32,803 nt of DNA. Origin: a virus. Taxonomy: Duplodnaviria > Heunggongvirae > Uroviricota > Caudoviricetes. This document shows, one piece after another, positions 1-32,754 of the stretch (positions are counted from its first letter, which is position 1; the number at the start of each line of letters is the position of its first letter). The stretch lies in the IMG/VR virus record IMGVR_UViG_2617270990_000007. One strand, 5' to 3'. Both the position numbers and the translations under genes were made by a program. The notes below the pieces were generated by a model. The model was not told the DNA's origin, ran no database searches, and saw only the letters and a program-made list of their open reading frames with translations.

Positions 1-23
1 TGGAGAGTGTTTTATCTGTGAAC

Positions 24-10889: not shown

Positions 10890-10949
10890 AGTTACTCCTA
10901 TCTAAGAATATTGACTCGAAAGGGTGTGTTTAACCCCTTTCTGGTTATT

Positions 10950-10984: not shown

Positions 10985-11009
10985 GTTGCACGATAGGAGA
11001 ATGTAACAG

Positions 11010-11285: not shown

Positions 11286-11289
11286 CTAC

Positions 11290-11765: not shown

Positions 11766-11845
11766 TTAATTAACTGCAATCTAAATCATTTTATTTACGG
11801 CGTTTTTACCGGGGCTTCGCTTTATCTTTTTTCAGGGGGTTGATT

Positions 11846-12998: not shown

Positions 12999-13462
12999 TG
13001 ATTACTCCGTCCATTAACGATCACGTGAGCTATCTGCAAGGCGCGATAGCGGCGTTAGAAAAGGCAAAAGAGGCTGCATTAATTCACGCTGGTTATGCAG
13101 GTCTTTTGGCTGGCCCTGATGTTGAAAAGACGCTTCGTAAGTCTTTCGGGGCGGTTCTTGATCCCCTGATTAAGTCTCACAGTAGTGAGCTTGTTTTTCT
13201 TGGCTTTGATCCTGCCGCTGAAGCCGAGCCTGAAAGTCATACGGTTTGCGCCGTTGTTACGCGCGTTTTTTCACGCCGCTGCATTAGCAAAGGTTGCTGG
13301 CGCGTTGATTTCGAGGCGCACGATTTGTGGACTGATGAAGTTGTCCGGCATTCCCTCAACTATCCAACAGTCAAGGCCGCGCGGAAATGTAAACCAGGTA
13401 AACCGATGACATGGAAGACGACGCCTCCCCCGTTCGATTTTGATGATGGAGCGCCATTCTGA
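12998..13462 (+). CDS. hypothetical protein (154 aa)
   Basis: ATG overlaps the methyltransferase stop (TGATG); no motif recognised. Confidence 0.5.
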   Translation: MITPSINDHVSYLQGAIAALEKAKEAALIHAGYAGLLAGPDVEKTLRKSFGAVLDPLIKSHSSELVFLGFDPAAEAEPESHTVCAVVTRVFSRRCISKGCWRVDFEAHDLWTDEVVRHSLNYPTVKAARKCKPGKPMTWKTTPPPFDFDDGAPF

Positions 13463-13635
13463 TGAATACCGTTGAGGTTGTAGTGACAAAGGTGCTGGAT
13501 GTTCTCCCGCGCCGTAATTATTGGATCACTCGCGTTGAAGTTCTGGGCGAGGGTGGTTACAGCAATACAGACCTGATCACCTACTCTGAACGTGACGCAA
13601 GAGCGATACAGCCAGGCGACACGGTTTTCATCTGA
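13462..13635 (+). CDS. small ORF (57 aa)
   Basis: ATG overlaps the preceding stop; ends 9 nt before gene A; below the ORF-track cutoff. Confidence 0.35.
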   Translation: MNTVEVVVTKVLDVLPRRNYWITRVEVLGEGGYSNTDLITYSERDARAIQPGDTVFI

Positions 13636-13644
13636 GGCGGCTTA

Positions 13645-16224: not shown

Positions 16225-16495
16225 TGATTATGAACGGGAAGCTGACTATCAAAATTGGCTCTATTATCGAGAATCTTCGCATGAGGAACGTGAGTCAAAA
16301 AGTCATTATATCAGCCAGGATGAAGCTGAGGTGGAAAGTAGGCCTAAGTTGGTTGTGACGAAAATTGAATGGCCCGCAGTAGACGTGTTTCGTGATTTCC
16401 CTGAACACCAAGCCCTGATTACCGCTGCGGAAAAAAAATACTTTGAGTCAAAATCATGCGTTCGCGACACTGGGGATGACCAAGATGATGATTGA
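16196..16495 (+). CDS. small acidic protein (about 99 aa), P2 orf91 position
   Basis: ATG-started ORF overlapping the last ~29 nt of A; highly acidic, ends DDQDDD. Confidence 0.35.
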   Translation: MGGSVGKYFDDYEREADYQNWLYYRESSHEERESKSHYISQDEAEVESRPKLVVTKIEWPAVDVFRDFPEHQALITAAEKKYFESKSCVRDTGDDQDDD

Positions 16496-16516
16496 TAATG
16501 TGTTGTAAGGTATAAG

Positions 16517-16560
16517 TTTCAGAATAACAAGGTGTTGTAAAAAATCTTGTTATTCTGAAA
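16517..16560. repeat. perfect 15-bp inverted repeat between convergent genes (possible bidirectional terminator)
   Basis: TTTCAGAATAACAAG - 14 nt - CTTGTTATTCTGAAA, 22 nt after the plus-strand ORF stop and 5 nt after the minus-strand ORF stop; no clean U-tract on either side. Confidence 0.4.
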
Positions 16561-16564
16561 GTGG

Positions 16565-17716
16565 TTAGATAGGGGAATTCATGCTATCGGGTGCTGTTAC
16601 TACCAAATGAACTTTCGTTAATCTTTCAACCGCAAGTTTAGGCAGTACACTATCAAAAATAGCTAAATAATTTTCCAAAAGGGAATTAATATAATCAAGT
16701 TTGCCATGCTCAATCTCATACCAAGTGTCAGGGAGATACCTGACTATAATGCTTAATGTATATAATACGACTAAGTGTAATACAAAGGGATCTTGAGTTC
16801 CCCAAAATGGGACAATTACACTCGTTCCACAATAACCAGATTTGTGTGTCGTGACATAATCCCACCATAGCTCATCTTCAGGGTGATGGACTTCTCCTAC
16901 AAAATATGGTTGGTCATATTTTGTGAGGTTTTCTTCTGACTCAATTTCAATGTTTTTTATTCCAATGTTGTAAGAATTAAGCTCTTCTGCTGTTACATCG
17001 CTACCTTTGGGATAAATTGCGGCATATGTAAAACCTGAGAACTCTGGTTTAGGACGCGATAGGCCACCGAGTGACTGATTCCTTGATCTTAAGAGCATGT
17101 TTCTACTTGCTTGTCCAATTTGGAATGAAAGTGGATCTTCACCGAAAGTTTCTTGTAAAAGCGGTCTTAATTCTGGAATTCGTTTTAATAAATCAGTTAA
17201 AGAATAGGTGCGTGATGGGTCTAAATCTTCATCTTTTTTTGGACGTCTTTCTGTTGCATACTGTTTGATATCAATTCCTATATGCTTTGCATATGAATAA
17301 AAATGTCCACTTTTAAGACAGCCTATTTTTATATTGTCTGGGAATGTTTCATTTTCAACAGATTGTGTGAATAGCCCATGACCTGAAACCGTATGCTTTT
17401 GAACATTTTTTAAATCGTCGTTAGGATCCCCTGATGATATTTGTTCAGCTAAGCTTATCTGTAATAATGCATAATATCTGGATAAAATTTTTGAATTGAG
17501 TCCGCCATTTTCAGTCTCCCAATATCCGATTGCACTTCGTATTGCGGAGGACATTCCAATGGATTTTTTAATCAATACATCCTCTTGCAATGACGGATGA
17601 TTATTTTCTATTATTTTCTTACAGAGCTGCGCACTCATTAATCGTTTTAATCGTAACCAGATTGCACCGCTAACATCTGCTGCAACGAAACGTTCTATTG
17701 TTTTTTCTGATGACAT
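16565..17716 (-). CDS. hypothetical protein (383 aa), hotspot cargo gene 2
   Basis: Long AT-rich ORF with AAGGAA SD 5-6 nt upstream of ATG; no domain recognised by eye. Confidence 0.6.
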   Translation of the reverse strand: MSSEKTIERFVAADVSGAIWLRLKRLMSAQLCKKIIENNHPSLQEDVLIKKSIGMSSAIRSAIGYWETENGGLNSKILSRYYALLQISLAEQISSGDPNDDLKNVQKHTVSGHGLFTQSVENETFPDNIKIGCLKSGHFYSYAKHIGIDIKQYATERRPKKDEDLDPSRTYSLTDLLKRIPELRPLLQETFGEDPLSFQIGQASRNMLLRSRNQSLGGLSRPKPEFSGFTYAAIYPKGSDVTAEELNSYNIGIKNIEIESEENLTKYDQPYFVGEVHHPEDELWWDYVTTHKSGYCGTSVIVPFWGTQDPFVLHLVVLYTLSIIVRYLPDTWYEIEHGKLDYINSLLENYLAIFDSVLPKLAVERLTKVHLVVTAPDSMNSPI

Positions 17717-17995
17717 CGCTGTTCCTTAGTTGACGTATTACAACTTTTCAAAGTTAACCATACTCTACAAAATTAGTGGTACTAAAGGGAGCATTTTTTG
17801 ATTGCCAGCAACTTCAAATCACATAGCGGGGAGCTACAATGTAGTGTGTCGCGGCTTGGTCCTTGCTAAGAATCCATGTATAACTGAGCGCCACGAAATT
17901 GTAATGCCCTTCAAAGACCGCCGGGATTGGCGGCTTTTTAGAGTTTACTTCTAGTTTTATTGCTTCAAAATAGAGATAAAAGATAATATGGCTTA

Positions 17996-19345
17996 TCAGT
18001 TAATATCAAAGCCTTCGATCTTCTCATACATCATTTCAAACCATTTGACTCGTTGTCCAGGTATTACAGCCATGAATGCGTACTCAGTGAGCATATCAGA
18101 GGAACGTAGTTCTTCATCGGTGGCTAAGTGGTATTTTAACAATATTGCAATATAATAAATCTCAGAAACATCGACAAGGTTTACAGGAATTGATAATCGT
18201 TTAAATATCTCATCTTCTGTCAGTTTTTTGTTTAATATTTCCATGAGTAAGGATTGGTTGAATATTTTCAAGAAAGCAACTAGTGCGATGGCAACATGAA
18301 ATATTTCATGTCGGTAGGAATTTACTTCGCTGGGGTCGTTCATTATTGCGAATGTTGAATAGCAACGCTCAGCCTCTCGCAGTGAACAGTTATTCATTTC
18401 TAGAAGATACGCGAGGGTTTTTACGAGAGAACCATTCCGAATCAGTATGTCATTCCCTTGATCTAACGACAGGAGATATTGTGTTAACGTTGAACGTTCA
18501 TAGCCTGCTCGGCAGCCTACTGAGAGCATACTTTTTTTAGGAAGAGTAAACCAATAATGAATAAATTTATTTAAATATAATCTTGTATTTATGCTCCCAT
18601 ATCTACACTCTATACTTTTTTCAAACTGCTCACGGTTAACTACTAGTAAGAAAACAAAACCTTCCACTGAAAATATATGTTTTATTTTCTCTAGCAAGTC
18701 AAGGGAAAAATCAGGTCGCGACCTGTCTAGCTCATCAATTATAAATATTATTTTTTTCCCACACTCAGTGTGAATCTTGGTCAGCAATGCTCTAAATTGC
18801 TCAATTGTTGCTAACTCACTCTCGCTCGTTTTTATTTTTTCTTCAATGTACTCTTCAATAGGTGATGTGAGAGAGTCACTGATGGCATCACTTGCTTTCT
18901 CCAGTGCGTTACCTGAGACTAATCCACTTGTGAAAGTGCTTACGGCAAATTTTGCACCATTAAGTGCGAATGACGCGCCTAGTTTTTTACCAATGGATAA
19001 TAACTCTTTCCCGAGGTTTTTAAGCTTTCCATCTTCTTTTTTTATGAGTGAATAAATTTTTGATGTTAAGGCTACAAATGGGTCTGATTGATAGTCATTT
19101 TCAAAAGCGTCAAAGTAAATAACGTCAAAGTTGTCAGCATGGTTTTTATTTATTTCTGATGACATCATTTTTACAAATGAGGTTTTTCCGTTACCCCATT
19201 CATCATTGAGCGCAAGTACAAGACTTTTATCTGGGGCATTTGTTGCTACCCGCATGATGATGTCATGAAGTTTTTTACGTCCAAATATGTCATCTGCTGT
19301 ACTAAAACCATCTGAGAACGCTTTAACAGGAGCGGTCAATCGCAT
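17996..19345 (-). CDS. KAP-family P-loop NTPase (449 aa), hotspot cargo gene 1
   Basis: Walker A with the KAP-typical Trp (NDEWGNGKTSF), following F-D-A-F…D-P-F segment, Walker B IIFIIDELDRSRPDF; GAGGAA SD upstream of ATG; AT-rich. Confidence 0.7.
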   Translation of the reverse strand: MRLTAPVKAFSDGFSTADDIFGRKKLHDIIMRVATNAPDKSLVLALNDEWGNGKTSFVKMMSSEINKNHADNFDVIYFDAFENDYQSDPFVALTSKIYSLIKKEDGKLKNLGKELLSIGKKLGASFALNGAKFAVSTFTSGLVSGNALEKASDAISDSLTSPIEEYIEEKIKTSESELATIEQFRALLTKIHTECGKKIIFIIDELDRSRPDFSLDLLEKIKHIFSVEGFVFLLVVNREQFEKSIECRYGSINTRLYLNKFIHYWFTLPKKSMLSVGCRAGYERSTLTQYLLSLDQGNDILIRNGSLVKTLAYLLEMNNCSLREAERCYSTFAIMNDPSEVNSYRHEIFHVAIALVAFLKIFNQSLLMEILNKKLTEDEIFKRLSIPVNLVDVSEIYYIAILLKYHLATDEELRSSDMLTEYAFMAVIPGQRVKWFEMMYEKIEGFDIN

Positions 19346-19548
19346 AATTTCTTTTCCTCATTTATTTAATGATTTAACGGCATCATAACTAGGCATGAGG
19401 TTACTTTTCAATAGAGTAAAGTGATGCACGATTGTGCGCAAAAATGCACAATAAAATCAGCCCCTTTTTGGGATTATCGAGGCAGGATCTGCGGGGGCTG
19501 GCGGTGGATCTGCAAGTGCACGAAAACACGAGTGTTCGTTGCGCGCAG

Positions 19549-19567
19549 GTGACGGGGGGAAAGCCCG
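19549..19567. other. candidate cos site of the P2-like prophage
   Basis: GGTGACGGGGGGAAAGCCC matches about 15 of 19 positions of the P2 cohesive end as I recall it, in the GC-rich gap between the hotspot and portal gene Q. Confidence 0.4.
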
Positions 19568-19750
19568 CGCGGCGGGGGGGTAGGGGGATGCCTCAAATAT
19601 AGGGAAATTGGCGCAATTCTGGCGCGCTGCTGCGTTCTGTGTGTTGTGTGCGGGTAATGGCGTGTTTAGATGATGGGGCGCTTAGAATGGCGCTGGCGCG
19701 CCGTGTGTTGATGTGATGCTAAGAGCGCCGCCGGACTGGCGGCGGTGTGG

Positions 19751-20812
19751 TTATTTGGTGGATTCAAGCAGGGCGTAAGGTTTAAAGCGGATCACTTCTT
19801 CGCCAAGCCAGTCGTTGACGTGCTTCAGTGCTTCCATTGCTGGCATCAGTTCGTTGATGGCAAACACGCGCGCGGCTTTCTCCATATCACCGAATGAGCC
19901 GTTGCCGTCCGGCATGGCCCCCATCAGTTGCGGTGGTACGCGGTGAGCGGCAAGGATGTCATCACGCGTAGCTGATTTAATATTTAAAAACTCATCCTTT
20001 GCAGATATCTGGCTGAAGGGCATCAGTTGTACCCCATCTTTGCCGCCGCCTGGTGCGTGGATCACTACGTTCTTAAATGCGCCTTTGTTCCTGGCTCCTG
20101 CCAGTGTTTGCTGTATCTGTTTTACACCAGCGTCATCTACCTGTGATGTGCCGATGTAAAGAATGCAGCCAGCATGAGATCCGTTCTCATAGTACATTTT
20201 GCGAAACATGTCCGCCGAGTGTGACAGGCTGGCTGACAGCAGGGTGCCCATATATTCCGGCATCCCGTAGATTTCCTGGTGAATATCGGGGTTCAGCACG
20301 TGGCAAACTGTGCCGGTTTCAAAGGCGCATTCGTCTTTCCACTGCCTGATAAACCAGTACGTGTCCAGGTCGGTGCCGCGCCGGGTGTACTTCGCAGGGG
20401 AATGGCGAAGCGGTAGCCGCCCGCCTAGCCGGTTCTTTCGTTCTTCAAGATAGAAGTTGCCAAACACAAACCAGTCAAGCGCCAGGGCGGAGAACGTCTG
20501 GCGAGACAGTAGCGGGTGTGGAATAAAGCATCCCGCCAGCGCGTTGCGCTTGAAGTACAGCGCTGACTGGTGCCAGGATGCTTTGCCGAATGAACGCGCA
20601 AGCCCGTACCAGTCCACCGGCGTTTCGTAATATCTGCCGTTGTCGGCGCAATACATATTGTCGAGTAGGTCGTAAGCGTCCGCGACCTGGTATGGCCCAT
20701 CAAAGGTGAAGGCGCTCAGAGCGGGATCGCGCTTTAGTGCTTCGCCAATATCAGCCTGTTGCGCGCCGTCAGTAAGCATGGTCATACCGCTTTCATGTGT
20801 TGTTGTGTTCAT
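19751..20812 (-). CDS. Q: portal protein (P2 gpQ-like)
   Basis: 353 aa; size, position next to cos and upstream-adjacent to the terminase ATPase; similarity to the gpQ family by eye. Confidence 0.85.
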   Translation of the reverse strand: MNTTTHESGMTMLTDGAQQADIGEALKRDPALSAFTFDGPYQVADAYDLLDNMYCADNGRYYETPVDWYGLARSFGKASWHQSALYFKRNALAGCFIPHPLLSRQTFSALALDWFVFGNFYLEERKNRLGGRLPLRHSPAKYTRRGTDLDTYWFIRQWKDECAFETGTVCHVLNPDIHQEIYGMPEYMGTLLSASLSHSADMFRKMYYENGSHAGCILYIGTSQVDDAGVKQIQQTLAGARNKGAFKNVVIHAPGGGKDGVQLMPFSQISAKDEFLNIKSATRDDILAAHRVPPQLMGAMPDGNGSFGDMEKAARVFAINELMPAMEALKHVNDWLGEEVIRFKPYALLESTK

Positions 20813-22536
20813 TAAAACTCCATAACGAAACTACCGCCGCCGCCGTTCTCGCGTCCAAGCGGCTCGTTGATGACTGCCAGCATATTGGCCCAGGCTAAGT
20901 CGCCGTGACTGACTCCGCGCGCGCGGTCGGTGTCATAAGTGACTTGTCCGCCGGGGGTGGTGATCTTTCTGACAGCGTTGAATGCTGACACTAGCGCCTG
21001 TTCACTGCGGTCATACTCCCAGCGCCCCGCGCGGATCACCTGTTGCATTTTCAGTACCAGGGTGCGCTTTGATGACAGCGACATTATGAAACAGACCGAA
21101 GCCGGGAAGAACTTTTTGACCAGTTGCCAGACCGCTTCACCGATGCCGGTGCCGTCAATTGCGATGTGTCGAACGTTATATTTCATCGTCAGGTCTTCGA
21201 TCACTTTGGCCTGTTCTTCAAACTCCATCCCGCGTAGCTGGCGCGTCTCTATCGTGCGGAACTTGCCGCCACTGACAAGGGGAGGGGCAACCACGGAAAC
21301 AGCGCCGCTGTCACCGTTGCCGCTGCCGCCGTTGGCGTCGTAGCCTATCCAGACTTCACGATCACCCAGCGGGCGGGGTGCGTAGGGTTTCCAGTCCTGC
21401 CAGTCGTCGTAGCCGTCCGCGCCACACGTCAGTAGCTGATTGAGTGAGAAAACAGCCTCGCCTTCTCTGACGAACTCACACATGTACAGGTTGGTGTATT
21501 CGTCCGGGGTGTTTTCGTCCTGGATTTCTTCCAGGTCGGTGAACTCCCAGCCGTGGTCGATCACGTCCTTTAGGGTGACAATCTGCCGCCAGGTTTTGTC
21601 CGGGCACAATAGGCCGCTGTTTAGCGTTTTCCAGCTTGTGTCGAAGTCTACCCTGCTGGACTTGGCCCGCTTCTCATTCCAGCGCTTGCCCGTCCAGAAG
21701 GGGTAGGCTTCGTGGCTTTCGCTCGATGGCGTTGAAAAGTAAGTGCGCGTAAGCCCTTTCAGGGTTGCCATAGCGCCAGCCACTTTGCGAAGGTTGGCAA
21801 AGTTGCCTACCCAGAAAAATTCATCAAAAAACAGGTTGCCGGTGTAGCTCTGCGCAGTAGCGGCAGACGTGCCGAGAAAATGCAATTCAGCCCCGTTAGA
21901 CAGCAAAATTTTGTCACCGCCCTTTAGTTCTACGTCTACCTCTTCGGCAATCTTCTGAATGAATCCCCGGAACTGGTGCGCCTGGCGGCGTGACGCTGAC
22001 AGAAAAATCTGGTTGCGTTGGTATCCGTGCTTAACGTCATCCCGCAGCGCCTGTAATAGCGCTTCGCGGGCAAAATACCAGGTTGCGCCAATCTGGCGAC
22101 TTTTCAGGATCATGCGGTTTCGTTGCTGGCGCTGTTCAAACCATCCCTGCTGATGCCAGGCCAGAGAGTCCTGAATTTTTTCCCGCAGCGCGGCGATCTG
22201 CGCTTCGGTGAAGTGGTTTTTCTTCTTGCCCGCGCGCGCTTTCTTGAAGGGTTGCGCCGGTTGGCCTTCTGCCAGCTTCTTCACCTGGCGCGTGAGCGCG
22301 TCGATTTCCTTCAGATCGCCGCCGGTCTTTGTTGGTTTCATCGCGATTTGGCATAACCGGGCATCAATAGATTGTGTGACGCGCTGAATCGCGGGCGTTT
22401 CGTCCCATTCGTCGCGCTTTTTCCACGAATAAACCGTGTTCTGACTGATACCCATCAGGCGTGCGATCTCTGCTGGCGGGTAGCCCTGCCAGTAAAGCTG
22501 CTTTGCTCTCTGTCTTACAAATGCGTCCTGGATCAT
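20812..22536 (-). CDS. P: terminase large (ATPase) subunit (P2 gpP-like)
   Basis: Start set at the internal ATG (MIQDAF…) with AGAGGA SD, because the longer track ORF would cover the late-promoter dyad at 22602..22619. Confidence 0.85.
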   Translation of the reverse strand: MIQDAFVRQRAKQLYWQGYPPAEIARLMGISQNTVYSWKKRDEWDETPAIQRVTQSIDARLCQIAMKPTKTGGDLKEIDALTRQVKKLAEGQPAQPFKKARAGKKKNHFTEAQIAALREKIQDSLAWHQQGWFEQRQQRNRMILKSRQIGATWYFAREALLQALRDDVKHGYQRNQIFLSASRRQAHQFRGFIQKIAEEVDVELKGGDKILLSNGAELHFLGTSAATAQSYTGNLFFDEFFWVGNFANLRKVAGAMATLKGLTRTYFSTPSSESHEAYPFWTGKRWNEKRAKSSRVDFDTSWKTLNSGLLCPDKTWRQIVTLKDVIDHGWEFTDLEEIQDENTPDEYTNLYMCEFVREGEAVFSLNQLLTCGADGYDDWQDWKPYAPRPLGDREVWIGYDANGGSGNGDSGAVSVVAPPLVSGGKFRTIETRQLRGMEFEEQAKVIEDLTMKYNVRHIAIDGTGIGEAVWQLVKKFFPASVCFIMSLSSKRTLVLKMQQVIRAGRWEYDRSEQALVSAFNAVRKITTPGGQVTYDTDRARGVSHGDLAWANMLAVINEPLGRENGGGGSFVMEF

Positions 22537-22601
22537 GCGGTGTCCTCTCGTTTCGATGGAGAGATTAACCCGCGCGCGTGGGCCGTTCCCGCTGTTTGGG
22601 T

Positions 22602-22619
22602 TGTGGGCCGTCTCTGACA
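22602..22619. promoter_or_regulatory. late-promoter activator dyad (TGT-N12-ACA) in the divergent P/O promoter region
   Basis: TGTGGGCCGTCTCTGACA; centre lies about 55 bp from plausible start points for both P (leftward) and O (rightward). Confidence 0.5.
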
Positions 22620-22692
22620 ACTAAAACGCGTTGAGACAATGACTTAGCAACTGACATCATGGAAAAACAGAAACCAACCGGCAGGAAAGAAC

Positions 22693-23532
22693 ATGAGTGA
22701 AACCAGCAAACCTACCCGGAAGAAATTCCGCGTTGCCGTCTCCGGTGCCACCGTTGACGGTCGCGAAATTCGACCAGATCACCTCCGTGATGCTGCCGCG
22801 AGCTATAGCCAGGACGTTTACGGCGCTCGCGTGAATGTTGAACATTATCTCTCGCCTTATCCAGGCAGTGATTTTGGTGCGATGGGGGATGTTACGGCGC
22901 TTAGCGCTGAGGACATTACTGAAGGTCCGCTAGCAGGGCGCACTGCGTTATATGCGGAAATTGAACCGTCAGCGCAAATGAAAGCGCTGACAGATGCCGG
23001 TAAGAAAGTCTATTCCAGTATTGAATTGCACCCGCAATTTGCACTGAACGGTAAGGCCTACATTGTCGGCATGGCGATGACTGATACCCCGGCAAGTCTG
23101 GGTACTGATCGCCTGAAGTTTGCGGCCCAGCAGCGCCAGCAGGTGCAGGCATTCAATAAACAGCAGGGCGAAAGCGCGATGTTCTCTGACGCCATTGAAG
23201 CGGAAGTGATCGAACTGGCTGAGCAGCGAAGTGATGAAGGCAGCAAGTGGTTTAGCCGCATGAAGGAAATTCTGACCAAAAACCATAAAACCGACAGTGA
23301 GCAATTCAGCCAGGTGCGCGAAGTGGTTGAAGGTGTCGCCACGTCTCAGGCGGGCCTTATCGATCAGGTGGTGGAACTGAGAAGCCAGCGCGCTGACGAC
23401 GCAAAGGAAATTCAGAAGTTGACCAGCGAACTGACCGACCTGAAAAACACACTGGCAAAGCAGGACGCCAGCACTTTCAGCCGCCAGCCCGCACAGGGCG
23501 GTAACACCGGCGTCGAACAAGCCGATTACTAA
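22693..23532 (+). CDS. O: capsid scaffolding protein (P2 gpO-like)
   Basis: 279 aa; position and size match P2 O; coiled-coil rich C-terminus. Confidence 0.85.
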   Translation: MSETSKPTRKKFRVAVSGATVDGREIRPDHLRDAAASYSQDVYGARVNVEHYLSPYPGSDFGAMGDVTALSAEDITEGPLAGRTALYAEIEPSAQMKALTDAGKKVYSSIELHPQFALNGKAYIVGMAMTDTPASLGTDRLKFAAQQRQQVQAFNKQQGESAMFSDAIEAEVIELAEQRSDEGSKWFSRMKEILTKNHKTDSEQFSQVREVVEGVATSQAGLIDQVVELRSQRADDAKEIQKLTSELTDLKNTLAKQDASTFSRQPAQGGNTGVEQADY

Positions 23533-23555
23533 CCACGCAAGCGAGAATAAAACAC

Positions 23556-24641
23556 ATGGAAAACAGTACCCGCGTACTTTTTAACGGCTATATCGATCGC
23601 CAAGCCAACTTAAATGGCGTGCGCTCTGATGATGTCGCCAAGTCCTTCAGCGTTGAACCGGCTGTGCAGCAGCGTATGGAAGCCGCTTCAATGGAAAGCG
23701 ATGATTTTCTGAAGAAAATTAACGTATTCCCGGTAAAAGCCCAGGAAGGCCAAAAAATCCTGATTGGTAGCAAAGGCCCGATCGCCAGTACCAACAACAG
23801 CAGCGACGGCACCTCCCGCCGCAACCCGGTAGACAATCACTCTAAAGAGCCGAGCACGTACCGCTGCCGTAAAACCAACTACGACTCTAGCTCCAGCTAT
23901 TCACAGCTGGATGCCTGGTCTATGCAACCTAATTTCCAGTCACTGATCAGCGCGGCAAACGCCCGCCAGATTGCACTGGACCGTATCATGATTGGTTTTA
24001 ATGGTACGTCATACGCTGAAGTGTCTGACCGTGCCACGAATCCGCTGTTGCAGGATTGTGGCGTTGGCTGGCTTCAGAAAATCCGCAATGACGCCCCGCA
24101 CCGCATCATCAGCAAAGTCACGCTGACTGCGCGCGATGAAGACAACAAAATCGTCGCCAAAGGTACTTACGGCAACCTGGACGCGGCTGTTTTTGACGCC
24201 AAAAACACGCTGTTGGATTCGTGGCACCGCAAAGCGCCTGATCTGGTTGTGATCCTGTCTTCTGATCTGTTGACCAGTAGCTATTTCCCGAAACTGAACG
24301 CCCTGAGCCAGACCAACCCGAACAGCGAATTGATCGCGGCACAGTTGATTGTGTCCAGTGAAAAAGTTGGCGGTCTGCCGGTGGTCTTCGCACCGTACAT
24401 GCCTGATGACTGTGTGCTGATCACGTCGCTGAAAAACCTCTCTGTGTATTACCAGTTGGGCGCACTGCGTCGAACCATCAAAGAGGAACCGCAATATAAC
24501 CGCGTGGCTAACTACCAGTCCTCAAACGATGACTTCGTTGTAGAAGACTACGGCAAATGCGCATTCATTGACGGGATCACCTTCGCGGAGGCCGCCCCGG
24601 CATCGTTATCCGTAGAGCCTGACGAGAACGCGGGCGCGTAA
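23556..24641 (+). CDS. N: major capsid protein (P2 gpN-like)
   Basis: 361 aa; P2 gene order and size. Confidence 0.9.
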   Translation: MENSTRVLFNGYIDRQANLNGVRSDDVAKSFSVEPAVQQRMEAASMESDDFLKKINVFPVKAQEGQKILIGSKGPIASTNNSSDGTSRRNPVDNHSKEPSTYRCRKTNYDSSSSYSQLDAWSMQPNFQSLISAANARQIALDRIMIGFNGTSYAEVSDRATNPLLQDCGVGWLQKIRNDAPHRIISKVTLTARDEDNKIVAKGTYGNLDAAVFDAKNTLLDSWHRKAPDLVVILSSDLLTSSYFPKLNALSQTNPNSELIAAQLIVSSEKVGGLPVVFAPYMPDDCVLITSLKNLSVYYQLGALRRTIKEEPQYNRVANYQSSNDDFVVEDYGKCAFIDGITFAEAAPASLSVEPDENAGA

Positions 24642-24684
24642 CTGCAATTGCGGGCGCATATGCGCCCGCCACCTGGAGACAAAA

Positions 24685-25509
24685 ATGTTAACCCCAGCGC
24701 AAAAACACTTTCAGAAAGTGATGGCTGATCGACGCGGAGACAGTGCCGCGCAACATAGCGTTGTGCGTACCGCGCATGAGCAAATTTTGCATCGTCTACG
24801 CCTCGATCAGGCCTCTCTTAAAGCGGTGCAGTCTACTGAAACAAAAGCAGTGATGAAGCGTGACATGTTGCCGGGTTACCAGGGCTGGATTGATGGGACT
24901 CTGGAGGGCGACAGCGGGCGACAGGATGAAGTGATCACCACGATGATGCTGTGGGCGATTGACTGCCAGGACTACCCGCAAGCGCTCAAGATTGGGCGCT
25001 ATGTGGTGAAGCATGGCCTGTCTATGCGTGACGACTTCAAACGTACTGCGCCGGTGATGCTGACTGAAGAAATCAGTAACCAGGCGCTGAACGTGGCGAT
25101 GACTGACGTTGAGGCGGATATGTCGGCTTATATCACCGTGCTGGATGAACTGGCGGAGATTGTCGCCGGTGCTGATATGCCGGATGAAGTGCAATCCAAG
25201 CTCTGCAAGGCCCGCGCCTTCTCGCGCCGTGGAACGGCTGACAATGAGACAAAAGGCGAAGCGCTAAAACTGTTTCGCCGTGCGACGGAACTGAACCCCG
25301 CAGCGGGCGTGAAACGTGAAATGCAGTCTATTTCACGCGAGCTGAAGAAGCTGGCGGCCCCGCAACCGGAAGCGACAGCACAACCGGTGCCTGTGCCGGT
25401 TGTCGCAGAGAAGAAAACCAAACGTAAGCCGAGCGCGGATAAAGCTGAGAAACCGGCAGCAAAAAAACGCGCACCGCGTAAAACGGCGAAAGATAAAAAA
25501 GAATCTTAA
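24685..25509 (+). CDS. M: terminase small (endonuclease) subunit (P2 gpM-like)
   Basis: 274 aa with Lys/Ala/Pro-rich basic C-terminal tail; P2 order. Confidence 0.85.
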   Translation: MLTPAQKHFQKVMADRRGDSAAQHSVVRTAHEQILHRLRLDQASLKAVQSTETKAVMKRDMLPGYQGWIDGTLEGDSGRQDEVITTMMLWAIDCQDYPQALKIGRYVVKHGLSMRDDFKRTAPVMLTEEISNQALNVAMTDVEADMSAYITVLDELAEIVAGADMPDEVQSKLCKARAFSRRGTADNETKGEALKLFRRATELNPAAGVKREMQSISRELKKLAAPQPEATAQPVPVPVVAEKKTKRKPSADKAEKPAAKKRAPRKTAKDKKES

Positions 25510-25606
25510 CGACTTCGGCCCCGACCGACAGGAGGCACGCGCGGAGATCTGCCCGTAACTGGTCTTTTCACCGCGTGTCCACCTCCTGACTTTTTAAGGA
25601 GCGCTC

Positions 25607-26104
25607 ATGAGTAGCCTGGTTGCCACAAAAACGCCGTTTCCGCCTGGCAGTGATGTAACTGATGTTGATGACGGTGATTCCACGGTAACGGCGGGAAGTT
25701 TCTGGCCTGTCATTAACCTGAAGGATTTGCGCCTTGCCGCGCGTATTACCGGCGGTGTCACCACTTCGCGACTGATGCACGTCACTACTGAGGCCGTGGC
25801 ACATGTCATTGAGCAGCTTGAAGAGTGGCAGATCAATCAGCAGGGGCTGGGCTATGAGGCGCTGAAGAATGTGCCCGCCGTGGAGATAAACGGCGAGAGC
25901 GTGAAGGTGTACCGCTACCGTCGCGCGGTTTATTCCATTGCCCGTGCCCTGGTGATTGAAGGTTATCGGGACGTTGATACCACGCCAAAAGGCGACAAAG
26001 ACGCCGCCGCGCTGGATTTGCAACGCGAAGATCTCTGGCGTGATGCGCGCTGGGGTATTGCAGACATCCAGCGCAAGCCGCGCGTTTATGCGGAGTTGTG
26101 CTGA
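25607..26104 (+). CDS. L: head completion / stabilisation protein (P2 gpL-like)
   Basis: 165 aa; AAGGAG SD; P2 order. Confidence 0.85.
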   Translation: MSSLVATKTPFPPGSDVTDVDDGDSTVTAGSFWPVINLKDLRLAARITGGVTTSRLMHVTTEAVAHVIEQLEEWQINQQGLGYEALKNVPAVEINGESVKVYRYRRAVYSIARALVIEGYRDVDTTPKGDKDAAALDLQREDLWRDARWGIADIQRKPRVYAELC

Positions 26105-26304
26105 TGAAGGTCACCGCGTTACAGGGCGATACGCTGGATCAGCTATGCCACCGGCACTACGGAAAGACCAAAGGCGTTACTGAAGAAGTATTGACCGCCA
26201 ATCCGGGTCTGAGTGGGCAGGTTTTTTTAAACGCAGGGCAGGTGGTTGAAATGCCGGACATTGATACCCAGCCCGCACAAGAGATGGTGCAGTTATGGAG
26301 CTAA
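26098..26304 (+). CDS. X: tail protein X (P2 gpX-like)
   Basis: 68 aa; overlaps L stop; matches gpX size and position. Confidence 0.8.
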   Translation: MLMKVTALQGDTLDQLCHRHYGKTKGVTEEVLTANPGLSGQVFLNAGQVVEMPDIDTQPAQEMVQLWS

Positions 26305-26591
26305 ATTCGTTTCACCGGCTATGGGACTGGGTTACCTGGATTTCTTCATCCATCAGCGTTGGTGTTGGTGTGATGACGTGGAATGAAAAGTTGGGGGTTG
26401 CCGGTGTTGTTTTGGGTGCCCTGTCAGGCTGGCGCGCCTGGGTACATCGTGCGCGGGTGGAGAAAGCACAGGCCCGCCGAAACTCACTGATTGAGCAAAT
26501 TCTTGATCAGGCCGAGCGCCGGGGGCTTACCGATTTTGAGCGGGTGAAGCTGGCGCAATTCCAGGCGGGTGACGATGAAGACGGTTATTAA
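26295..26591 (+). CDS. putative holin
   Basis: Small membrane protein with hydrophobic segments (…LGVAGVVLGALSGW…) and charged C-terminus, immediately upstream of the endolysin; not similar to P2 Y itself. Confidence 0.45.
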   Translation: MELNSFHRLWDWVTWISSSISVGVGVMTWNEKLGVAGVVLGALSGWRAWVHRARVEKAQARRNSLIEQILDQAERRGLTDFERVKLAQFQAGDDEDGY

Positions 26592-27117
26592 GCGTTGCTC
26601 TATCGCCGTAATTGTCGCCCTGGGCTTATCAATGTCGCCCGATGCGCTGAGAACGTCGCCGGAAGCACAGCAAAAAATAGCCTCCTGGGAAGACTGCCGA
26701 AACACGCCTTATTACTGTACCGCCGGAGTGTTGACCGTGGGGATCGGCTCCACCGGTGGTGTGGAAAAACGCGAGTACAGCAACGCTGAAGTAGCGCGCC
26801 GGTGGGTTAGTGATATGCAGCATTCTGAACGCTGCGTAAACCAGAACTTCAACGGCGAAGCGATGCCGCAAAAGGTGTTCGAAAGCATGGTTGATGGCGG
26901 GCTGAATGTGGGTTGTACGGGCCTGATGTGGTTTACCGATAAACAGGGCCGCAAACAGCGCACAACCATCTGGAAAAATGCCCAGGCTCACAACTGGGGC
27001 GGCGTCTGTGATCGTCTAACCGACTTTGTAAACAGTGCCGGTAAGCGCTCGCAAGGGCTGGTCAATCGGCGCACTGATTTTCAGGCGTGGTGCCGTAAGG
27101 ATGCGGGGGCGCAATGA
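26569..27117 (+). CDS. K: endolysin (lysozyme-like, SAR-type with E-x8-C-x5-T variant)
   Basis: 182 aa; N-terminal hydrophobic segment containing a Cys; WEDCRNTPYYCTAGVLTVGIG carries the E-x8-C-x5-T signature. Confidence 0.8.
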   Translation: MTMKTVIKRCSIAVIVALGLSMSPDALRTSPEAQQKIASWEDCRNTPYYCTAGVLTVGIGSTGGVEKREYSNAEVARRWVSDMQHSERCVNQNFNGEAMPQKVFESMVDGGLNVGCTGLMWFTDKQGRKQRTTIWKNAQAHNWGGVCDRLTDFVNSAGKRSQGLVNRRTDFQAWCRKDAGAQ

Positions 27118-27488
27118 AAACAATTTTATGGGGTTTGGTGCTAACCGCTCTTACTTACGGGGCCGGGTATTACCGGGGATATACAAGCGGCGTGGCGGAT
27201 GACAACGAACAGAAGTTACAGCGCATGTTTGATGAAAGTGAAGCTGTGATAGGTGAAATGCGTGGTCTGTCTGCTGATGCGCGGGCGGTGCTGGCTGAGG
27301 CCAAAAAAGCGGAGCAAACACGCAACCTAGCGGGTGAAGAACGCCGTAAAAACATAACTGAGGGGATGCGTGATGATTCGTGTGCCAGTGCTCTTGCTCC
27401 TGTTGCTGTCAGTGATGGGTTGCTCAGAAAAAATAAGAGTTCAAACGCGGCTGATTCACGAGCCGATACCGGAAAGCCTGACCGATGA
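27114..27488 (+). CDS. lysB: i-spanin (LysB/Rz-like)
   Basis: 124 aa; N-terminal TM helix then charged helical region. Confidence 0.6.
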   Translation: MKTILWGLVLTALTYGAGYYRGYTSGVADDNEQKLQRMFDESEAVIGEMRGLSADARAVLAEAKKAEQTRNLAGEERRKNITEGMRDDSCASALAPVAVSDGLLRKNKSSNAADSRADTGKPDR

Positions 27489-27660
27489 AACGCCCACGCC
27501 GGAACTGAAAACGCCGGTGACGTGGGGCGGTATTGCGATTTGGGCGGATCAGTTGCATGACGCGCTTGATACCTGCAATGCGGATAAGAGTGATATCCGG
27601 GCGCTAAATCTGTTGCGCCTGGCACGCCAGAGGGGAGGGGAACCACATGCTGAAAATTAA
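27370..27660 (+). CDS. lysC: o-spanin lipoprotein (LysC/Rz1-like), overlapping the i-spanin 3' end
   Basis: 96 aa; signal peptide with lipobox VMGC; Pro-rich mature region. Confidence 0.55.
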   Translation: MMIRVPVLLLLLLSVMGCSEKIRVQTRLIHEPIPESLTDETPTPELKTPVTWGGIAIWADQLHDALDTCNADKSDIRALNLLRLARQRGGEPHAEN

Positions 27661-28099
27661 CTCATTACGTAGCGCGCTCACCAGGGCTAATCCGTGGTGT
27701 CGTGCCAACCCTGAAGCCTTCAGCGTTTTTATTGAATCCGGGCATGTTGAGACGACCGGCGAAACGGCTGACTTTGTTTACGCCTATACGCTGTGTCTCT
27801 TTGTGATGAATTTTGCCGGTGATCTGGATGATTTCACGTTGCCGCTGATGGCCTGGCTGTGGCAGGAACAGCCGCAACTGTTGCTGAACCCGGAGAAGAA
27901 CAAAGAAATTAAGTTCACAACGGCAATCAATAATGACGATACCGCCGATCTGTTTTTTGAACTGCCTATTAGTGAACGCGTGATTGTATCGCGTGATGAA
28001 GCCGGGAAGCTGACCGGAAAGCATAAGCCGGAACCCCGCCCGCGCATGATGCCAGAGTGGGGCGCGATGTTGAGCGAACCTGGGAGTGACAACCCATGA
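27647..28099 (+). CDS. R: tail completion protein R (P2 gpR-like)
   Basis: 150 aa; P2 order. Confidence 0.8.
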   Translation: MLKINSLRSALTRANPWCRANPEAFSVFIESGHVETTGETADFVYAYTLCLFVMNFAGDLDDFTLPLMAWLWQEQPQLLLNPEKNKEIKFTTAINNDDTADLFFELPISERVIVSRDEAGKLTGKHKPEPRPRMMPEWGAMLSEPGSDNP

Positions 28100-28734
28100 A
28101 TGCCGGTGATGTTCACGCGCTGGATCAGTATTTCGCAGACATCCTGGCGGGGGCGTCATCCAGTGGGCGGGCCAGAACGGCGCGCGCCGTGGGTAAGGTT
28201 TTACGAATTAGCCAGCAACAGCGCATACGCGCACAGCGTAACCCGGACGGAAGCCAGTACCCGTCACGCCGCCGTAAAACGCTGCGCACCCAGCAGGGGA
28301 TCGCCTTTATCTGGGAAGGGCAGTTGCGCCGGTTGAAAAACTGGCACAGCGGGCGCGGTAAATATGGGCGGACGATTACCGGATTTGATGAAGACCGCAA
28401 TGAGATCCGCACGTTCTACCGTGCCGATATTGAGCGCTATACGGAAATTAATACCCGCGCGGGCCAGCGCCCAAAAGTGGTCAAGGCTCCGATGTTCGTG
28501 AAGCTGAGAACCGCCCGCTTTATGAAGGTGAAGGCATCCAGTGAGGGGGCTGAAGTGGGTTACAGCGGTATGGCGGCCCGTATCGCCCGCATTCATCAGT
28601 ACGGATTGCGTGAGCAGGTAGGGCCGGGGTCATTTGCGAAGTATGCGCCGCGTGTCCTGTTGGGAATTTCTAAGGCTGATGAAGCGCTGATCCGTAGCGC
28701 GGTGATTAACAGCCTGGGGGGTGCCGGGGCATGA
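28096..28734 (+). CDS. S: tail completion / virion morphogenesis protein S (P2 gpS-like)
   Basis: 212 aa; overlaps R stop; P2 order. Confidence 0.8.
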   Translation: MNAGDVHALDQYFADILAGASSSGRARTARAVGKVLRISQQQRIRAQRNPDGSQYPSRRRKTLRTQQGIAFIWEGQLRRLKNWHSGRGKYGRTITGFDEDRNEIRTFYRADIERYTEINTRAGQRPKVVKAPMFVKLRTARFMKVKASSEGAEVGYSGMAARIARIHQYGLREQVGPGSFAKYAPRVLLGISKADEALIRSAVINSLGGAGA

Positions 28735-29312
28735 GTGCCGAACTGTTGCGCCTCCTGTCTAACGTGCTCCGTGTGGGCGTGGTTTTTGACATATCGAAAG
28801 ACGGTAAAAGTGTACGGGTGCAGAGCGATGATTTGCAGACAACATGGCTTCGCTGGACGACAACGCGCGCCGGTGCTTTCAAATTCTGGTGTGCGCCGTC
28901 GCTGGGCGAACAGGTTTTGCTGGGATGTCTGGGCGGCAATCCTGAAACAGCCGTTGTGCTGGGCAGCCTCTACAGCAACGAAAACGACGCCCCCGCCAGT
29001 AGCCTGATGCAGATGATGATCACCGCGCCTGATGGGGCTGAATTTAGCTATGACGCGAAGGCGGGCGCACTGAGTGCCGGCGGAATGAAAACCGCCACCA
29101 TCCAGGCAGCAACAAAAATCACGCTCGATGCGCCAGAGGTGGAGTGCACAAAACATCTGAAAGCGAAAACCTTTGATTTCACTGAGGGCGGAAAGATGAC
29201 CGGCGATGTAACTCACAGCGGCGGCGCACTGAAGTCAAACGGCGTCCAGGCTGACGATCATGATCATGGTGGTGTTGAGAGTGGCAATAGCAGGACTAAG
29301 GGGACGGCATGA
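28731..29312 (+). CDS. V: baseplate assembly protein V (spike)
   Basis: 193 aa; P2 order. Confidence 0.85.
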   Translation: MSAELLRLLSNVLRVGVVFDISKDGKSVRVQSDDLQTTWLRWTTTRAGAFKFWCAPSLGEQVLLGCLGGNPETAVVLGSLYSNENDAPASSLMQMMITAPDGAEFSYDAKAGALSAGGMKTATIQAATKITLDAPEVECTKHLKAKTFDFTEGGKMTGDVTHSGGALKSNGVQADDHDHGGVESGNSRTKGTA

Positions 29313-29677
29313 CGGCGAAATATACGGGAATGAACCAGGGCGGCACAGGGACGGTTTCAGATAGCGATCACCTTTGGCAGTCCGTGAAAGATGTCCTGCT
29401 GACGCCGTTGGGGTCACGCGTAATGCGCCGGTCGTACGGCAGCTTGTTACCTGATTTGCTGGACGCCCCGAAAAACGAAACAACACGCCTTCAGCTAATG
29501 AGCGCCACGGTGATTGCGCTGACGCAATGGGAACCGCGGATAGCACTTAACCAGGTTGATATTACGTATTCAGACGCCGGGGCGGTGACGGTTGAGTTAG
29601 GCGGATTGGTTACCACAACAATGCAGCCGGTAAGCGGTGCAGTAAAGGTGAAGGAGTCAGGCAATGGCGACAGTTGA
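29309..29677 (+). CDS. W: baseplate protein W (gp25-like)
   Basis: 122 aa; P2 order. Confidence 0.85.
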   Translation: MTAKYTGMNQGGTGTVSDSDHLWQSVKDVLLTPLGSRVMRRSYGSLLPDLLDAPKNETTRLQLMSATVIALTQWEPRIALNQVDITYSDAGAVTVELGGLVTTTMQPVSGAVKVKESGNGDS

Positions 29678-30557
29678 TTTATCAGAGCTTCCACCACCGG
29701 AAATCATCGCGACGCTGGATTTCGAAATCATCCTGAGTGATGTGAAAGAGATGATTATTGCCGCTTATCCGGAGGGACAACAACAGGCCATAGCAGCAGC
29801 ATTGGAGCTTGAGTCGGAGCCTTTGACGGTGCTCGCTCAGGTGATTGCTTATCGCGAATTGATGTTGCGACAGGTCATAAATGACGGTGCTGCAGCTTGC
29901 ATGTTAAGCCATTCCACCGGCGGAGATCTGGATAACCTGGCGGCAAATAACAATACAGAGCGACTGACGATTGTTGAGGAGACAGATACAACAGATGCGG
30001 TAATGGAAAGTGACGCCGCGCTGCGCTTACGTGCGCAATCTGCATTCGAAGGATTGAGTGTTGCCGGGCCTACCGGCGCTTACGAATACTTCGCTAAAAG
30101 CGCATCAGGGAAAGTTGCTGATGTTAAGGCATCAAGTCCGGCGCCGGCTGAAGTTGTTGTTTCGGTGCTCTCTGCTGAAGGTGACGGAACGGCTTCAGAC
30201 GAGCTGATCGCAACGGTCAACGCAAAATTATCAGATGAAAGTGTCCGCCCTGTGGGTGACAGGCTGACAGTCCAGAGCGCTGAGATTATCAGTTATGACA
30301 TCAATGCCACGCTGTATCTCTACCCAGGCCCAGAGTCAGAACCCATTGTGAACGCTGCCGAGGCGTCGTTGCAGAAGTGGCTCAAAAGCCAGTGGCGGAT
30401 CGGGCTTGATGTTGCCAGGTCTGCAATTTTGGCGGCGTTACACGTGCAGGGCGTGCAGCGTGTGGAACTGGATTTACCTGAACGGCTGATTATCAGCGAT
30501 ACACAGGCGGCGCGGTGCGCTTCGGTCACCATCACGAGAGGCGGAACCGATGAATAA
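29664..30557 (+). CDS. J: baseplate protein J
   Basis: 297 aa; P2 order. Confidence 0.85.
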   Translation: MATVDLSELPPPEIIATLDFEIILSDVKEMIIAAYPEGQQQAIAAALELESEPLTVLAQVIAYRELMLRQVINDGAAACMLSHSTGGDLDNLAANNNTERLTIVEETDTTDAVMESDAALRLRAQSAFEGLSVAGPTGAYEYFAKSASGKVADVKASSPAPAEVVVSVLSAEGDGTASDELIATVNAKLSDESVRPVGDRLTVQSAEIISYDINATLYLYPGPESEPIVNAAEASLQKWLKSQWRIGLDVARSAILAALHVQGVQRVELDLPERLIISDTQAARCASVTITRGGTDE

Positions 30558-31164
30558 CAGTCTGTTGCCACCTTCAGCCAGTGATTTTATGCGCAGTGCC
30601 GAGGCCGCAACCTGGCGCGTGAGTGATTTGCCCGTAGACCTGAAAACGCTGTGGAACCCTGATGAATGCCCGGTTGCTTTACTGCCTTATCTGGCCTGGG
30701 CGTTATCGGTTGATCGCTGGGATAAAGGCTGGTCAGAACAGACAAAGCGACAGGTGATTAAATCCGCCTGGCTGGTACACCGGCAAAAGGGAACTATTGC
30801 GGCGCTGCGCCGTGTCGTTGAGCCGTTCGGCTTCCTGATAAAGGTCGTTGAATGGTGGCAGAACGGAGGCGAGCGGGGAACATTTCAACTTGAAATTGGT
30901 GTTTCTGACTCAGGGATTACAGAAGAAACCTATCTCGAGCTTGAGCGCCTGATCGCTGATGCAAAACCATGCTCACGCCACCTGACCGGCCTTGCAATCA
31001 GTATGCAGGCGAAGGGAGAGGTATACGCCCACGCCGGGTGTTATGGCGGTGACGTGATGACTATTTACCCCTATATGCCTGAAGCCGTAGAAGTCAGTGG
31101 CGGGTATTTTCCCGGGGGCGCAATTCATATTATTGATACGTTAGAGGTAACAAATGGCGGCTAA
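30550..31164 (+). CDS. I: tail protein I
   Basis: 204 aa; P2 order. Confidence 0.8.
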   Translation: MNNSLLPPSASDFMRSAEAATWRVSDLPVDLKTLWNPDECPVALLPYLAWALSVDRWDKGWSEQTKRQVIKSAWLVHRQKGTIAALRRVVEPFGFLIKVVEWWQNGGERGTFQLEIGVSDSGITEETYLELERLIADAKPCSRHLTGLAISMQAKGEVYAHAGCYGGDVMTIYPYMPEAVEVSGGYFPGGAIHIIDTLEVTNGG

Positions 31165-31498
31165 ATTCTTTGCCCTGCTGACTGCTCAGGGGGCGGCAAA
31201 ATTATCAAATATGGCTGCGCTGGGTGAGAAGTTAGAAATCACCTCGCTCGCAGTTGGCGACGGCGGCGGCAAATCACCAACACCAAGCCAGGCACAGACA
31301 GCGCTGGTTAACGAGGTGCGCCGCGCCCAGCTTAACTCGCTGTCAGTGGACGATAAAAACGACAGCCAGATTATTGCGGAACAGATTATTCCTGAATCCG
31401 TTGGCGGGTGGTGGATTCGTGAAATAGGACTCTTTGATGCTGATGGTATCTTGATTGCTGTGGCTAACTGCCCGGAGACGTACAAGGCCACAACAGAG
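31154..31498 (+). pseudogene. H: tail-fibre gene H, truncated after ~115 codons by IS insertion
   Basis: N-terminus (…AVGDGGGK…IAVAN…ETYK…) matches the P2 gpH N-terminal domain; the reading frame runs straight into the IS terminus at 31499, whose first three bases TGA supply the stop. Confidence 0.8.
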
Positions 31499-31540
31499 TG
31501 AACCGCCCCGGGTTTCCTGGAGAGTGTTTTATCTGTGAAC

Positions 31541-32431
31541 TCAGGCTGCCAGATCATCGTTTCCGATGGAAGCATAATAAGCTTTTTCTGCTTCTGCCGG
31601 AGGAGTATGGCCCAGCCTTCCCAGCAATCGTCGATTGTTATACCAGTCCACCCACGTTAGTGTGGCCAGTTCCACTTCTGCACGGTTTTTCCAGCTCTTA
31701 CGGTGTATTACCTCCGCTTTGTAAAGACCATTGATGCTCTCAGCCATCGCGTTGTCATACGAGTCGCCTGTACTCCCTGTTGATGCCAGTAATCCGGCTT
31801 CTTTTAGTCGCTCCGTATAGGCCAGTGACACATACTGAGAGCCTTTATCGCTGTGATGGATGGTGCCAGACGGACGACGGGCCCACAACGCCTGCTCCAG
31901 CGCATCCAGCACGAATGTCGTTTCCATAGACGATGAGACCCGCCACCCCACGATGTATCCGGCAAACACATCAATGATAAACGCCACATAGACGAAGCCC
32001 TGCCATGTGCTGACGTAAGTAAAATCAGCCACCCACAGCTGGTCAGGTCGTTCTGCCACGAACTGACGGTTTACGCGGTCGCCTGCGGCAACGGCTTTCC
32101 GGCTGATGGTCGTACGGACCTTTTTACCCCGGAGAACACCGGCAAGTCCCATAACCGCCATGAGACGTGCCACTGTACATCTGGCCACCCTGATTCCTTC
32201 CCGTAACAACTGACGCCAGACTTTACGCACACCGTACACCTGATGATTTTCATCGTATACGCGCTGTATCTCTCTCTTCAGCCAGTCGTCGTGCTGCGCA
32301 CGGGCACTGCGTTTATCCGGATGATGTCGCTGTTGCTGACAATGGTAATACGTTGACGGGGCAATATGCAGTTCGCTGCATACCGGTCCGACCCCGTACT
32401 GCTCACGCAGCTTATCCAGCAGTGGCATCAT
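31541..32431 (-). CDS. IS3-family transposase OrfB (copy 2)
   Basis: Translation identical to ORF 24..914. Confidence 0.9.
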
Positions 32432-32754
32432 TTTTTCCAGAGGCGGTCGAACTCCGCCTTCGCAAAATAAGCGGAAGCCTGGCGAAGGATATCGTTACTG
32501 CGGCGCAGTTCACGATTTTCACGTTCCAGCTCTTTCAGACGCTGACGTTCAGCGCTGGTGAGCCCACCATCACCGCCCCCGGTATCCCGCTCATGCTGGC
32601 GAACCCAGACACGCAGAGTCTCCGGCGTACAGCCAATCTTTGGGGCAATGGAACAAATTGCCGCCCACTGTGAGTCATATTCATCCTGACTTTCCAGAAC
32701 CATACGAATCGCCCGCTGACGGACTTCGGGGGAAAAACGAGTATTTTTAGTCAT
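32428..32754 (-). CDS. IS3-family transposase OrfA (copy 2)
   Basis: Translation identical to ORF 911..1237. Confidence 0.9.

Follow-up and report, generated by a model that had tools for sequence, protein, structure and literature searches.

A P2-like prophage of Escherichia coli whose tail-fiber gene H runs into an insertion sequence (IS), with no tail gene readable beyond it, raises the question of whether the genes distal to H have been deleted or lie elsewhere in the genome. We studied this locus in a window of 32,803 bp, by which we mean the whole stretch of DNA analyzed. An earlier note on the same DNA had concluded that H is interrupted by an IS629-like element and that the prophage lacks everything downstream of H. 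The interruption held up, and the loss did not: the genes in question are found on another contig of the same assembly. Feature coordinates are collected in Table 1.

Gene H is interrupted by IS629 after codon 115

The reading frame at 31154-31501 encodes 115 amino acids followed by a stop codon. Its product, H', matches Pfam PF12571 (phage tail-collar fiber N-terminal domain; E = 3.4e-46) over profile positions 1 to 113 of 150, and this domain of H is itself cut by IS629. H' aligns residue by residue with residues 1 to 115 of the intact 428-amino-acid H, in which the protein goes on with EGSGRTQ.... Both results bear out the assignment to H that had been made from N-terminal motifs, and GenBank already annotates H' as KDT31062.1 and KDZ88407.1. 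The gene neighborhood is that of P2. gpJ, at 29664-30557 (Baseplate_J), is followed by gpI with its Tail_P2_I domain and then by H, in the P2 order, and the overlap between I and H also resembles that of P2. A protein identical to the gpI of the window accompanies intact H in many assemblies. Gene G (PF02413, Caudo_TAP chaperone) lies directly after the rest of H on the second contig described below and in all intact relatives. The frame therefore has the two marks of a gpH-type gene, namely a PF12571 N terminus and a place after J and I and before the assembly chaperone.

IS629 starts at 31499 with TGAACCGCCCCGGG... (in a longer reading of the same start, TGAACCGCCCCGGGTTTCCTGGAG...). The letters at this near junction are ...ACAACAGAG/TGAACCGCC, the slash marking the border. 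As had been proposed, the H frame runs straight into the IS terminus and the IS gives the stop codon, since its first triplet is TGA.

The position of the insertion was established from uninterrupted copies. More than 100 blocks of the public collection hold proteins identical to the gpI and gpJ of the window. Eleven retrieved loci were 100% identical to window positions 29300-31498, that is, along the 2,199 bases that precede the site, and all of them carry an intact 428-amino-acid H. In these 11 assemblies, the empty site reads ...ACAACAGAG/GAAGGATC without interruption (with a longer right side, GAAGGATCAGGCCGTACG...; the uninterrupted sequence spanning the site is ...ACAACAGAGGAAGGATC...). 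These loci place the insertion point between codons 115 (GAG) and 116 (GAA) of H, which supplies the breakpoint that the earlier note had proposed to locate by alignment with intact gpH. A megablast search with the junction region found the junction in none of 5,426 complete E. coli genomes, and matches to the IS swamped the results. The phage side alone gave four matches among complete E. coli genomes, the best of which was strain ES1 at 96.9%. The ES1 prophage has a different integrase and occupies a different chromosomal site, and it is informative on gene order.

The element itself is 99.5 to 99.8% identical over about 1,315 bases to listed copies annotated as the IS3-like IS1203 family; the listed matches include O157:H7, O111:H8, and unserotyped E. 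coli strains. We reconstructed the full IS629 as 1,310 bp with terminal inverted repeats of 13+9 bases. Its ends are TGAACCGCCCCGG...CCTGGAGA on both sides, imperfect inverted repeats that begin with TG. Identity, a length of about 1.3 kb, inverted repeats, overlapping orfA and orfB, and a 3-bp target-site duplication together place it in the IS629/IS1203 group. Both transposase genes are antisense to H. An ALIL pseudoknot spans the orfA/orfB overlap, which fits a predicted programmed -1 frameshift. IS1203 and IS3411 are isoforms of IS629, whose target duplications measure 3 to 4 bp (PMC3271280). In four O157 genomes, 62% of the IS629 copies were found in prophages or prophage-like elements, and IS629 contributes to prophage decay (PMC3271280). 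The present copy resembles the IS629/IS1203/IS3411 elements of O157:H7 and other STEC prophages in the element itself, its orfA/orfB and ALIL, the duplication, and the prophage target. It differs in its host, another E. coli isolate, and in its target, a P2-like H gene rather than the usual lambdoid Sp/CP prophages.

Table 1. Coordinates of the features discussed (positions are those of the window unless a locus is named; L numbers denote loci, L032 being contig JNSB01000110.1)
Feature	Position	Strand	Basis
Second IS629 copy, bases 20-1310	1..1291	-	1286/1286 identity to right-hand copy; sits in Qin gene rem
Left 22 kb of P2-like prophage, int to H'	9345..31498	+	99.97% identical to uninterrupted JNMX01000022.1 copy
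gpI baseplate protein, overlaps H start	30550..31164	+	PF09684, E = 1e-51
H', 115 N-terminal codons of P2-type tail-fiber gene H (intact, 428 codons)	31154..31498	+	PF12571; 100% nt identity to intact alleles
GAG, left copy of 3-bp target-site duplication, native codon E115 of H	31496..31498	.	Empty-site comparison
TGA stop of H', first three IS bases, codon 116	31499..31501	+	Frame followed from ATG at 31154
IS629/IS1203 copy, bases 1-1305 of 1310, clipped by contig end	31499..32803	-	Annotated-copy identity; reconstructed length and repeats
IS orfB, 296 aa, HTH_21 and rve DDE integrase core	31541..32431	-	Pfam rve, E = 9e-28
ALIL pseudoknot, predicted -1 frameshift stimulator at orfA/orfB overlap	32357..32473	-	Rfam RF01497, 121.5 bits (gathering score 50)
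IS orfA, 108 aa, HTH_Tnp_1	32428..32754	-	Pfam PF01527, E = 2.4e-12
Inverted FI-to-U operon	L001 23562-30397; L004, L010-L031; L032 2667-9310		
FI split by IS421/IS186	L032 8303-9826		IS421-copy identity; one IS end only on contig

The window is a draft contig with both ends inside IS629

An exact-protein look-up showed that the entire 32,803-bp window is the draft contig JNSB01000059.1 of E. coli 3-105-05_S1_C1 (assembly GCA_000705005.1). Its right end falls on base 1305 of the 1,310 bases of IS629, 5 bases before the far end of the element. Its left end falls on base 20 of another IS629 copy, which terminates at position 1291. The two copies are in direct orientation, and their common bases match at 1286 of 1286. 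Window position 1292 corresponds to position 4001 of locus L036, within rem (3954-4205) at about codon 17, and a comparison with the empty site of strain PSJ-07 likewise puts the left copy inside this gene of the Qin cryptic prophage. The same IS breaks a contig of a sibling assembly too. Both window ends are assembly breaks in a multicopy repeat, without biological meaning. Because the window stops inside the IS, the absence of genes past H is uninformative; it is true, as had been reported, that none of G, FI, FII, E, T, U, D, and ogr occurs before the window end. The earlier note had overlooked both that the window ends inside the IS and that it starts inside an identical copy.

A perfect terminal repeat of this kind could lead one to take the contig for a circular or complete phage genome. 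We considered a circular element with a single IS and rejected it: the flanks readable in the window, CTA to the right of the left copy and GAG to the left of the right copy, do not form a duplication, and the gene adjoining the left copy is rem, not H.

The distal tail genes are present on a second contig of the same assembly

Through the tail-fiber assembly protein G, which is the representative of its cluster, we reached JNSB01000110.1, a contig of 9,826 bp that belongs to the same assembly as the window. Its first 1,291 bases are IS629 bases 20-1310, as at the left end of the window. The far junction on this contig reads ...GGGGCGGTTCA/GAG/GAAGGATCAGG..., or in short form ...GGTTCA/GAG/GAAGGATC. 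The 3-bp duplication that had been suggested as something to look for at the far IS end is thus GAG, and it is shared by both junctions. Past the IS, the contig matches intact alleles over 3,297 bases with zero mismatches. When the 1,310-bp IS and one GAG were removed from the two contigs, H was restored at 1287 of 1287 nucleotides identical to an intact allele (locus L013). The reconstructed locus with both halves of H, the IS, and the second GAG measures 2,600 bp from the ATG to the stop codon. The contig continues with the rest of H, G, an acyltransferase gene, U, T, E, E', FII, and most of FI. The products of G, the acyltransferase gene, U, T, E, E', and FII are identical in protein sequence to their counterparts in an uninterrupted copy of this prophage. 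The distal genes are therefore intact beyond the IS, one of the two fates that had been considered for them, and the other, deletion, found no support.

The annotated proteins fit the same arrangement. Under a simple insertion with a GAG duplication, the frame entering H from the IS would lack a start codon, and the C-terminal fragment was predicted to begin at M126. This 303-amino-acid fragment, M126-C428, is present in the collection as KDT28317.1 and KDZ80730.1, from the same two GenBank assemblies as KDT31062.1 and KDZ88407.1. Of the possible C-terminal fragments, that from M126 was the only one in the collection; those from M127, V145, and V159 were absent. Exact look-ups of T, the acyltransferase, and the FI fragment from JNSB01000110.1 gave no match, probably owing to differing start codons. 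For gpD, the strain has the annotated protein KDT30430.1, whose accession number falls outside the runs of both other contigs, and the remaining piece of the prophage therefore lies on a third contig. This contig would carry the N terminus of FI, D, ogr, and attR. Because the assembler could not cross the multicopy IS, the prophage sequence is divided among three contigs or more.

These data bear on three alternatives to a simple insertion. One is that IS629, or recombination between its copies, removed the rest of H together with all tail and late-control genes distal to it. Deletions associated with IS629 have been described in O157 (PMC3271280), and the window on its own shows nothing past the IS. 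Yet the rest of H, G, U, T, E, E', FII, and most of FI follow an IS629 end with the matching GAG in the same assembly, gpD is present in the strain, and the window merely stops 5 bases before the end of the IS. A second prophage copy should yield an intact H N terminus, and none was found for this strain. We consider such a deletion highly improbable. The earlier note had itself named an H gene that continues after the IS with a matching duplication as the outcome that would speak for insertion without deletion, and this is what the second contig holds.

An assembly artefact, in which IS sequence was wrongly joined to a contig end and is not truly in H, has a chance that we regard as negligible. 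Nearly the whole IS is appended to the ends of both contigs, which shows that the assembler extends into repeats. But the two contigs break at one identical nucleotide and share a 3-bp duplication of the kind that IS629 makes, the break recurs in three assemblies, and the GenBank annotators called both H fragments independently.

The third alternative holds that the insertion was followed by recombination between IS copies that inverted, excised, or relocated segments, so that the two halves of H are now apart or 30.2 kb is partly circular. The genome has several identical IS629 copies, two of which, 100% identical and in direct orientation, do flank the window; only the CTA and GAG flanks are visible, and short-read contigs cannot order the exits of a repeat. 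Against this, both halves of H carry GAG and rejoin perfectly, which is the mark of an unrearranged insertion. The pair of contigs is the same in three assemblies, with no positive sign of rearrangement. We find this course of events very unlikely. The matching GAG and the perfect restoration of H instead suggest that H', the IS, and the rest of H are physically adjacent.

The IS629-in-H site was seen in only three related assemblies, and across the whole collection just 3 contigs encode precisely the H' protein. Because the stub is so restricted and the DNA around it hardly differs from that of many intact copies, the insertion appears to be recent and private to its lineage.

A second insertion sequence splits the sheath gene FI

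On JNSB01000110.1, homology to the uninterrupted prophage breaks off at position 9310, immediately behind codon 61 of FI, the sheath gene. The 516 bases that follow are identical at every position (516/516) to copies annotated as the IS4-like IS421 family, and a partial open reading frame in them matches DDE_Tnp_1 (PF01609), which assigns the element to IS421/IS186. It agrees with known IS186/IS421 elements (IS4 family) in this full identity and in the transposase domain; a single end lies on the contig, so this copy is known from the 516 bases alone. The insertion in FI is a second, independent inactivating event in the tail module, located outside the window.

In several unrelated assemblies (L010, L015, L017, and L025; in L010, from 18729 onward), a Mu-like prophage with genes for Mu transposase A and MuB interrupts FI near codon 140. 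The resulting 262-amino-acid sheath fragment was found on 34 contigs. Together, the IS421 and Mu-like insertions indicate that FI has been struck repeatedly by different mobile elements.

The prophage belongs to a P2-like lineage with an inverted tail operon

The same prophage is present without interruption, at the same chromosomal site, in JNMX01000022.1 from E. coli 3-475-03_S4_C2. Window positions 3645-31498 are 99.97% identical to that contig, with 8 substitutions and no indels. Four of these substitutions lie inside the 22 kb of prophage, where they cause three amino acid changes and disrupt no frame. Most of the differences are paired or lie in C- or G-rich runs (23811 and 23814 in capsid gene N, 7395-7441, and 19577), and P86T and P87S in the major capsid protein are among them. 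These clustered differences may reflect errors in sequencing or assembly and not true mutations.

By comparison with the empty site in strain PSJ-07, the attachment core is approximately AAGGCTCCTTCGGG, between ynfQ and ynfN of Qin. The attL core lies at about 9331-9344, and the left end of the prophage is at about 9345. A search for exact direct repeats of at least 12 bases shared by attL and attR found none; since the core is imperfect, we defined it from PSJ-07.

The part of the prophage in the window carries int, a repressor gene, cox, a methylase gene, A, and a cargo encoding a YaaC-like protein and a KAP NTPase. It also carries Q, P, O, N, M, L, X, lysis genes, R, S, V, W, J, I, and H'. 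The P2-type domains found on contigs of the lineage are Phage_GPA, Phage_Cox, portal, terminase, GPO, cap_P2, GPL, tail_X, GpR, tail_S, base_V, GPW, J, I, GpU, GpE, tube, sheath, GPD, and Ogr_Delta. The gene set thus covers replication, head, lysis, baseplate, tail, and late control, which identifies a P2-like prophage (Peduoviridae). The likeness to P2 lies in the V-W-J-I-H-G segment, in which H carries the tail-collar PF12571 domain, follows J and I, and precedes the G chaperone gene, and in GpA, Cox, Q, P, O, N, M, L, X, R, S, V, W, U, E, D, and Ogr. Among sequenced phages, the nearest are Enterobacter phage phiT5282H and Escherichia phage 500465-2, at only about 66 to 68% nucleotide identity.

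The prophage differs from P2 in several respects. Its H has 428 residues and a different C-terminal, receptor-binding part (with a weak Gp53-like_C match). An acyltransferase gene follows G; the slot between G and U holds this gene or, in loci L004-L007, a recombinase gene of the resolvase/invertase type. The acyltransferase is possibly involved in O-antigen modification. The P2 order H-G-FI-FII-E-T-U-D-ogr on a single strand, which the earlier note had expected, is not found in this lineage. In every relative examined, the FI-FII-E'-E-T-U operon lies between G and D on the strand opposite to V-W-J-I-H-G. Given its presence in all of them, the inversion is a trait of the lineage rather than damage.

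The cargo, on the minus strand at 16565-19345 between A and the portal gene, consists of a YaaC-like gene (383 amino acids) and a KAP-family P-loop NTPase gene (449 amino acids). The NTPase matches the PADLOC candidate defense family PDC-S20 (E = 1e-74) and, more weakly, PifA and QatA. In E. coli ES1, the related prophage has a DNA adenine methylase gene at the same spot, which marks this spot as a variable cargo position. Variable cargo positions in P2-like phages are known to hold antiphage genes.

The structural half of the prophage is about 96% identical to that of prophages located at cpxP/fieF (ES1, L026, and L028). The integrase/immunity region is only about 72% identical to that of these prophages (window 9331-10444 versus L001 2722-3702). 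The two levels of identity, together with the different chromosomal site, point to a modular exchange of the integration/immunity module.

Discussion

Our analysis leaves little doubt that the best explanation of this locus is a simple, recent insertion of IS629 into H, with nothing deleted, plus a second IS in FI. A 1,310-bp IS629/IS1203 element of the IS3 family transposed between codons 115 and 116 of H in a P2-like prophage of about 32 kb in the Qin region of E. coli 3-105-05_S1_C1. The insertion duplicated the 3-bp target GAG without loss of flanking DNA. It left behind a 115-amino-acid N-terminal stub, ended by the TGA of the IS itself, and cut off the other 313 codons of H, together with G and its chaperone product, from the upstream operon. 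Separately, IS421/IS186 split FI after codon 61.

In P2, gpH is the tail fiber, with its N terminus on the baseplate and its C terminus on the receptor, and gpG is its chaperone; gpFI forms the contractile sheath. By analogy, IS629 would separate the late promoter from the rest of H and from G, and FI would likewise be cut off from its promoter, as would probably the genes behind it. The tails should be nonfunctional, because the stub lacks the end of the attachment domain, and the 313 remaining codons and G lie behind 1.3 kb of antisense IS. From what is known of P2 mutants in H and FI, a lack of fibers, polarity on G, and a lack of sheath would be expected here, and the prophage would be unable to build fibered contractile tails or, on its own, infectious particles. 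The tail defect that the earlier note had proposed thus retains its place in our interpretation, strengthened by the lesion in FI. The modules for integration, replication, head, and lysis appear undamaged.

The DNA between the two direct IS629 copies amounts to 30.2 kb and comprises part of Qin and two thirds of the P2-like prophage. It is conceivable, though we give it a very small chance, that this IS-bracketed unit is excised, lost, or moved through recombination between the IS copies, or that the H stub, if the late operon still expresses it, interferes with the baseplate or fiber assembly of superinfecting P2-like phages. If so, the double IS insertion would represent a domestication step and not plain decay.

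For the analysis of draft genomes, a contig that ends in a repeated IS tells nothing of what follows. When draft contigs suggest a truncated prophage or missing tail genes, the remaining contigs of that assembly should be consulted. In the present case, what might have been a 10-kb deletion proved in this way to be a clean 1.3-kb insertion, and the lesion in FI came to light. The biological weight of the finding is small, and both fragments of H were already annotated in GenBank. Insertion of IS629 into prophage genes is a known and well-documented route of prophage decay in E. coli; the present case adds another instance, in a P2-like rather than a lambdoid prophage. For users of the strain, it means that this prophage should give no infectious particles, though its gene content is complete.
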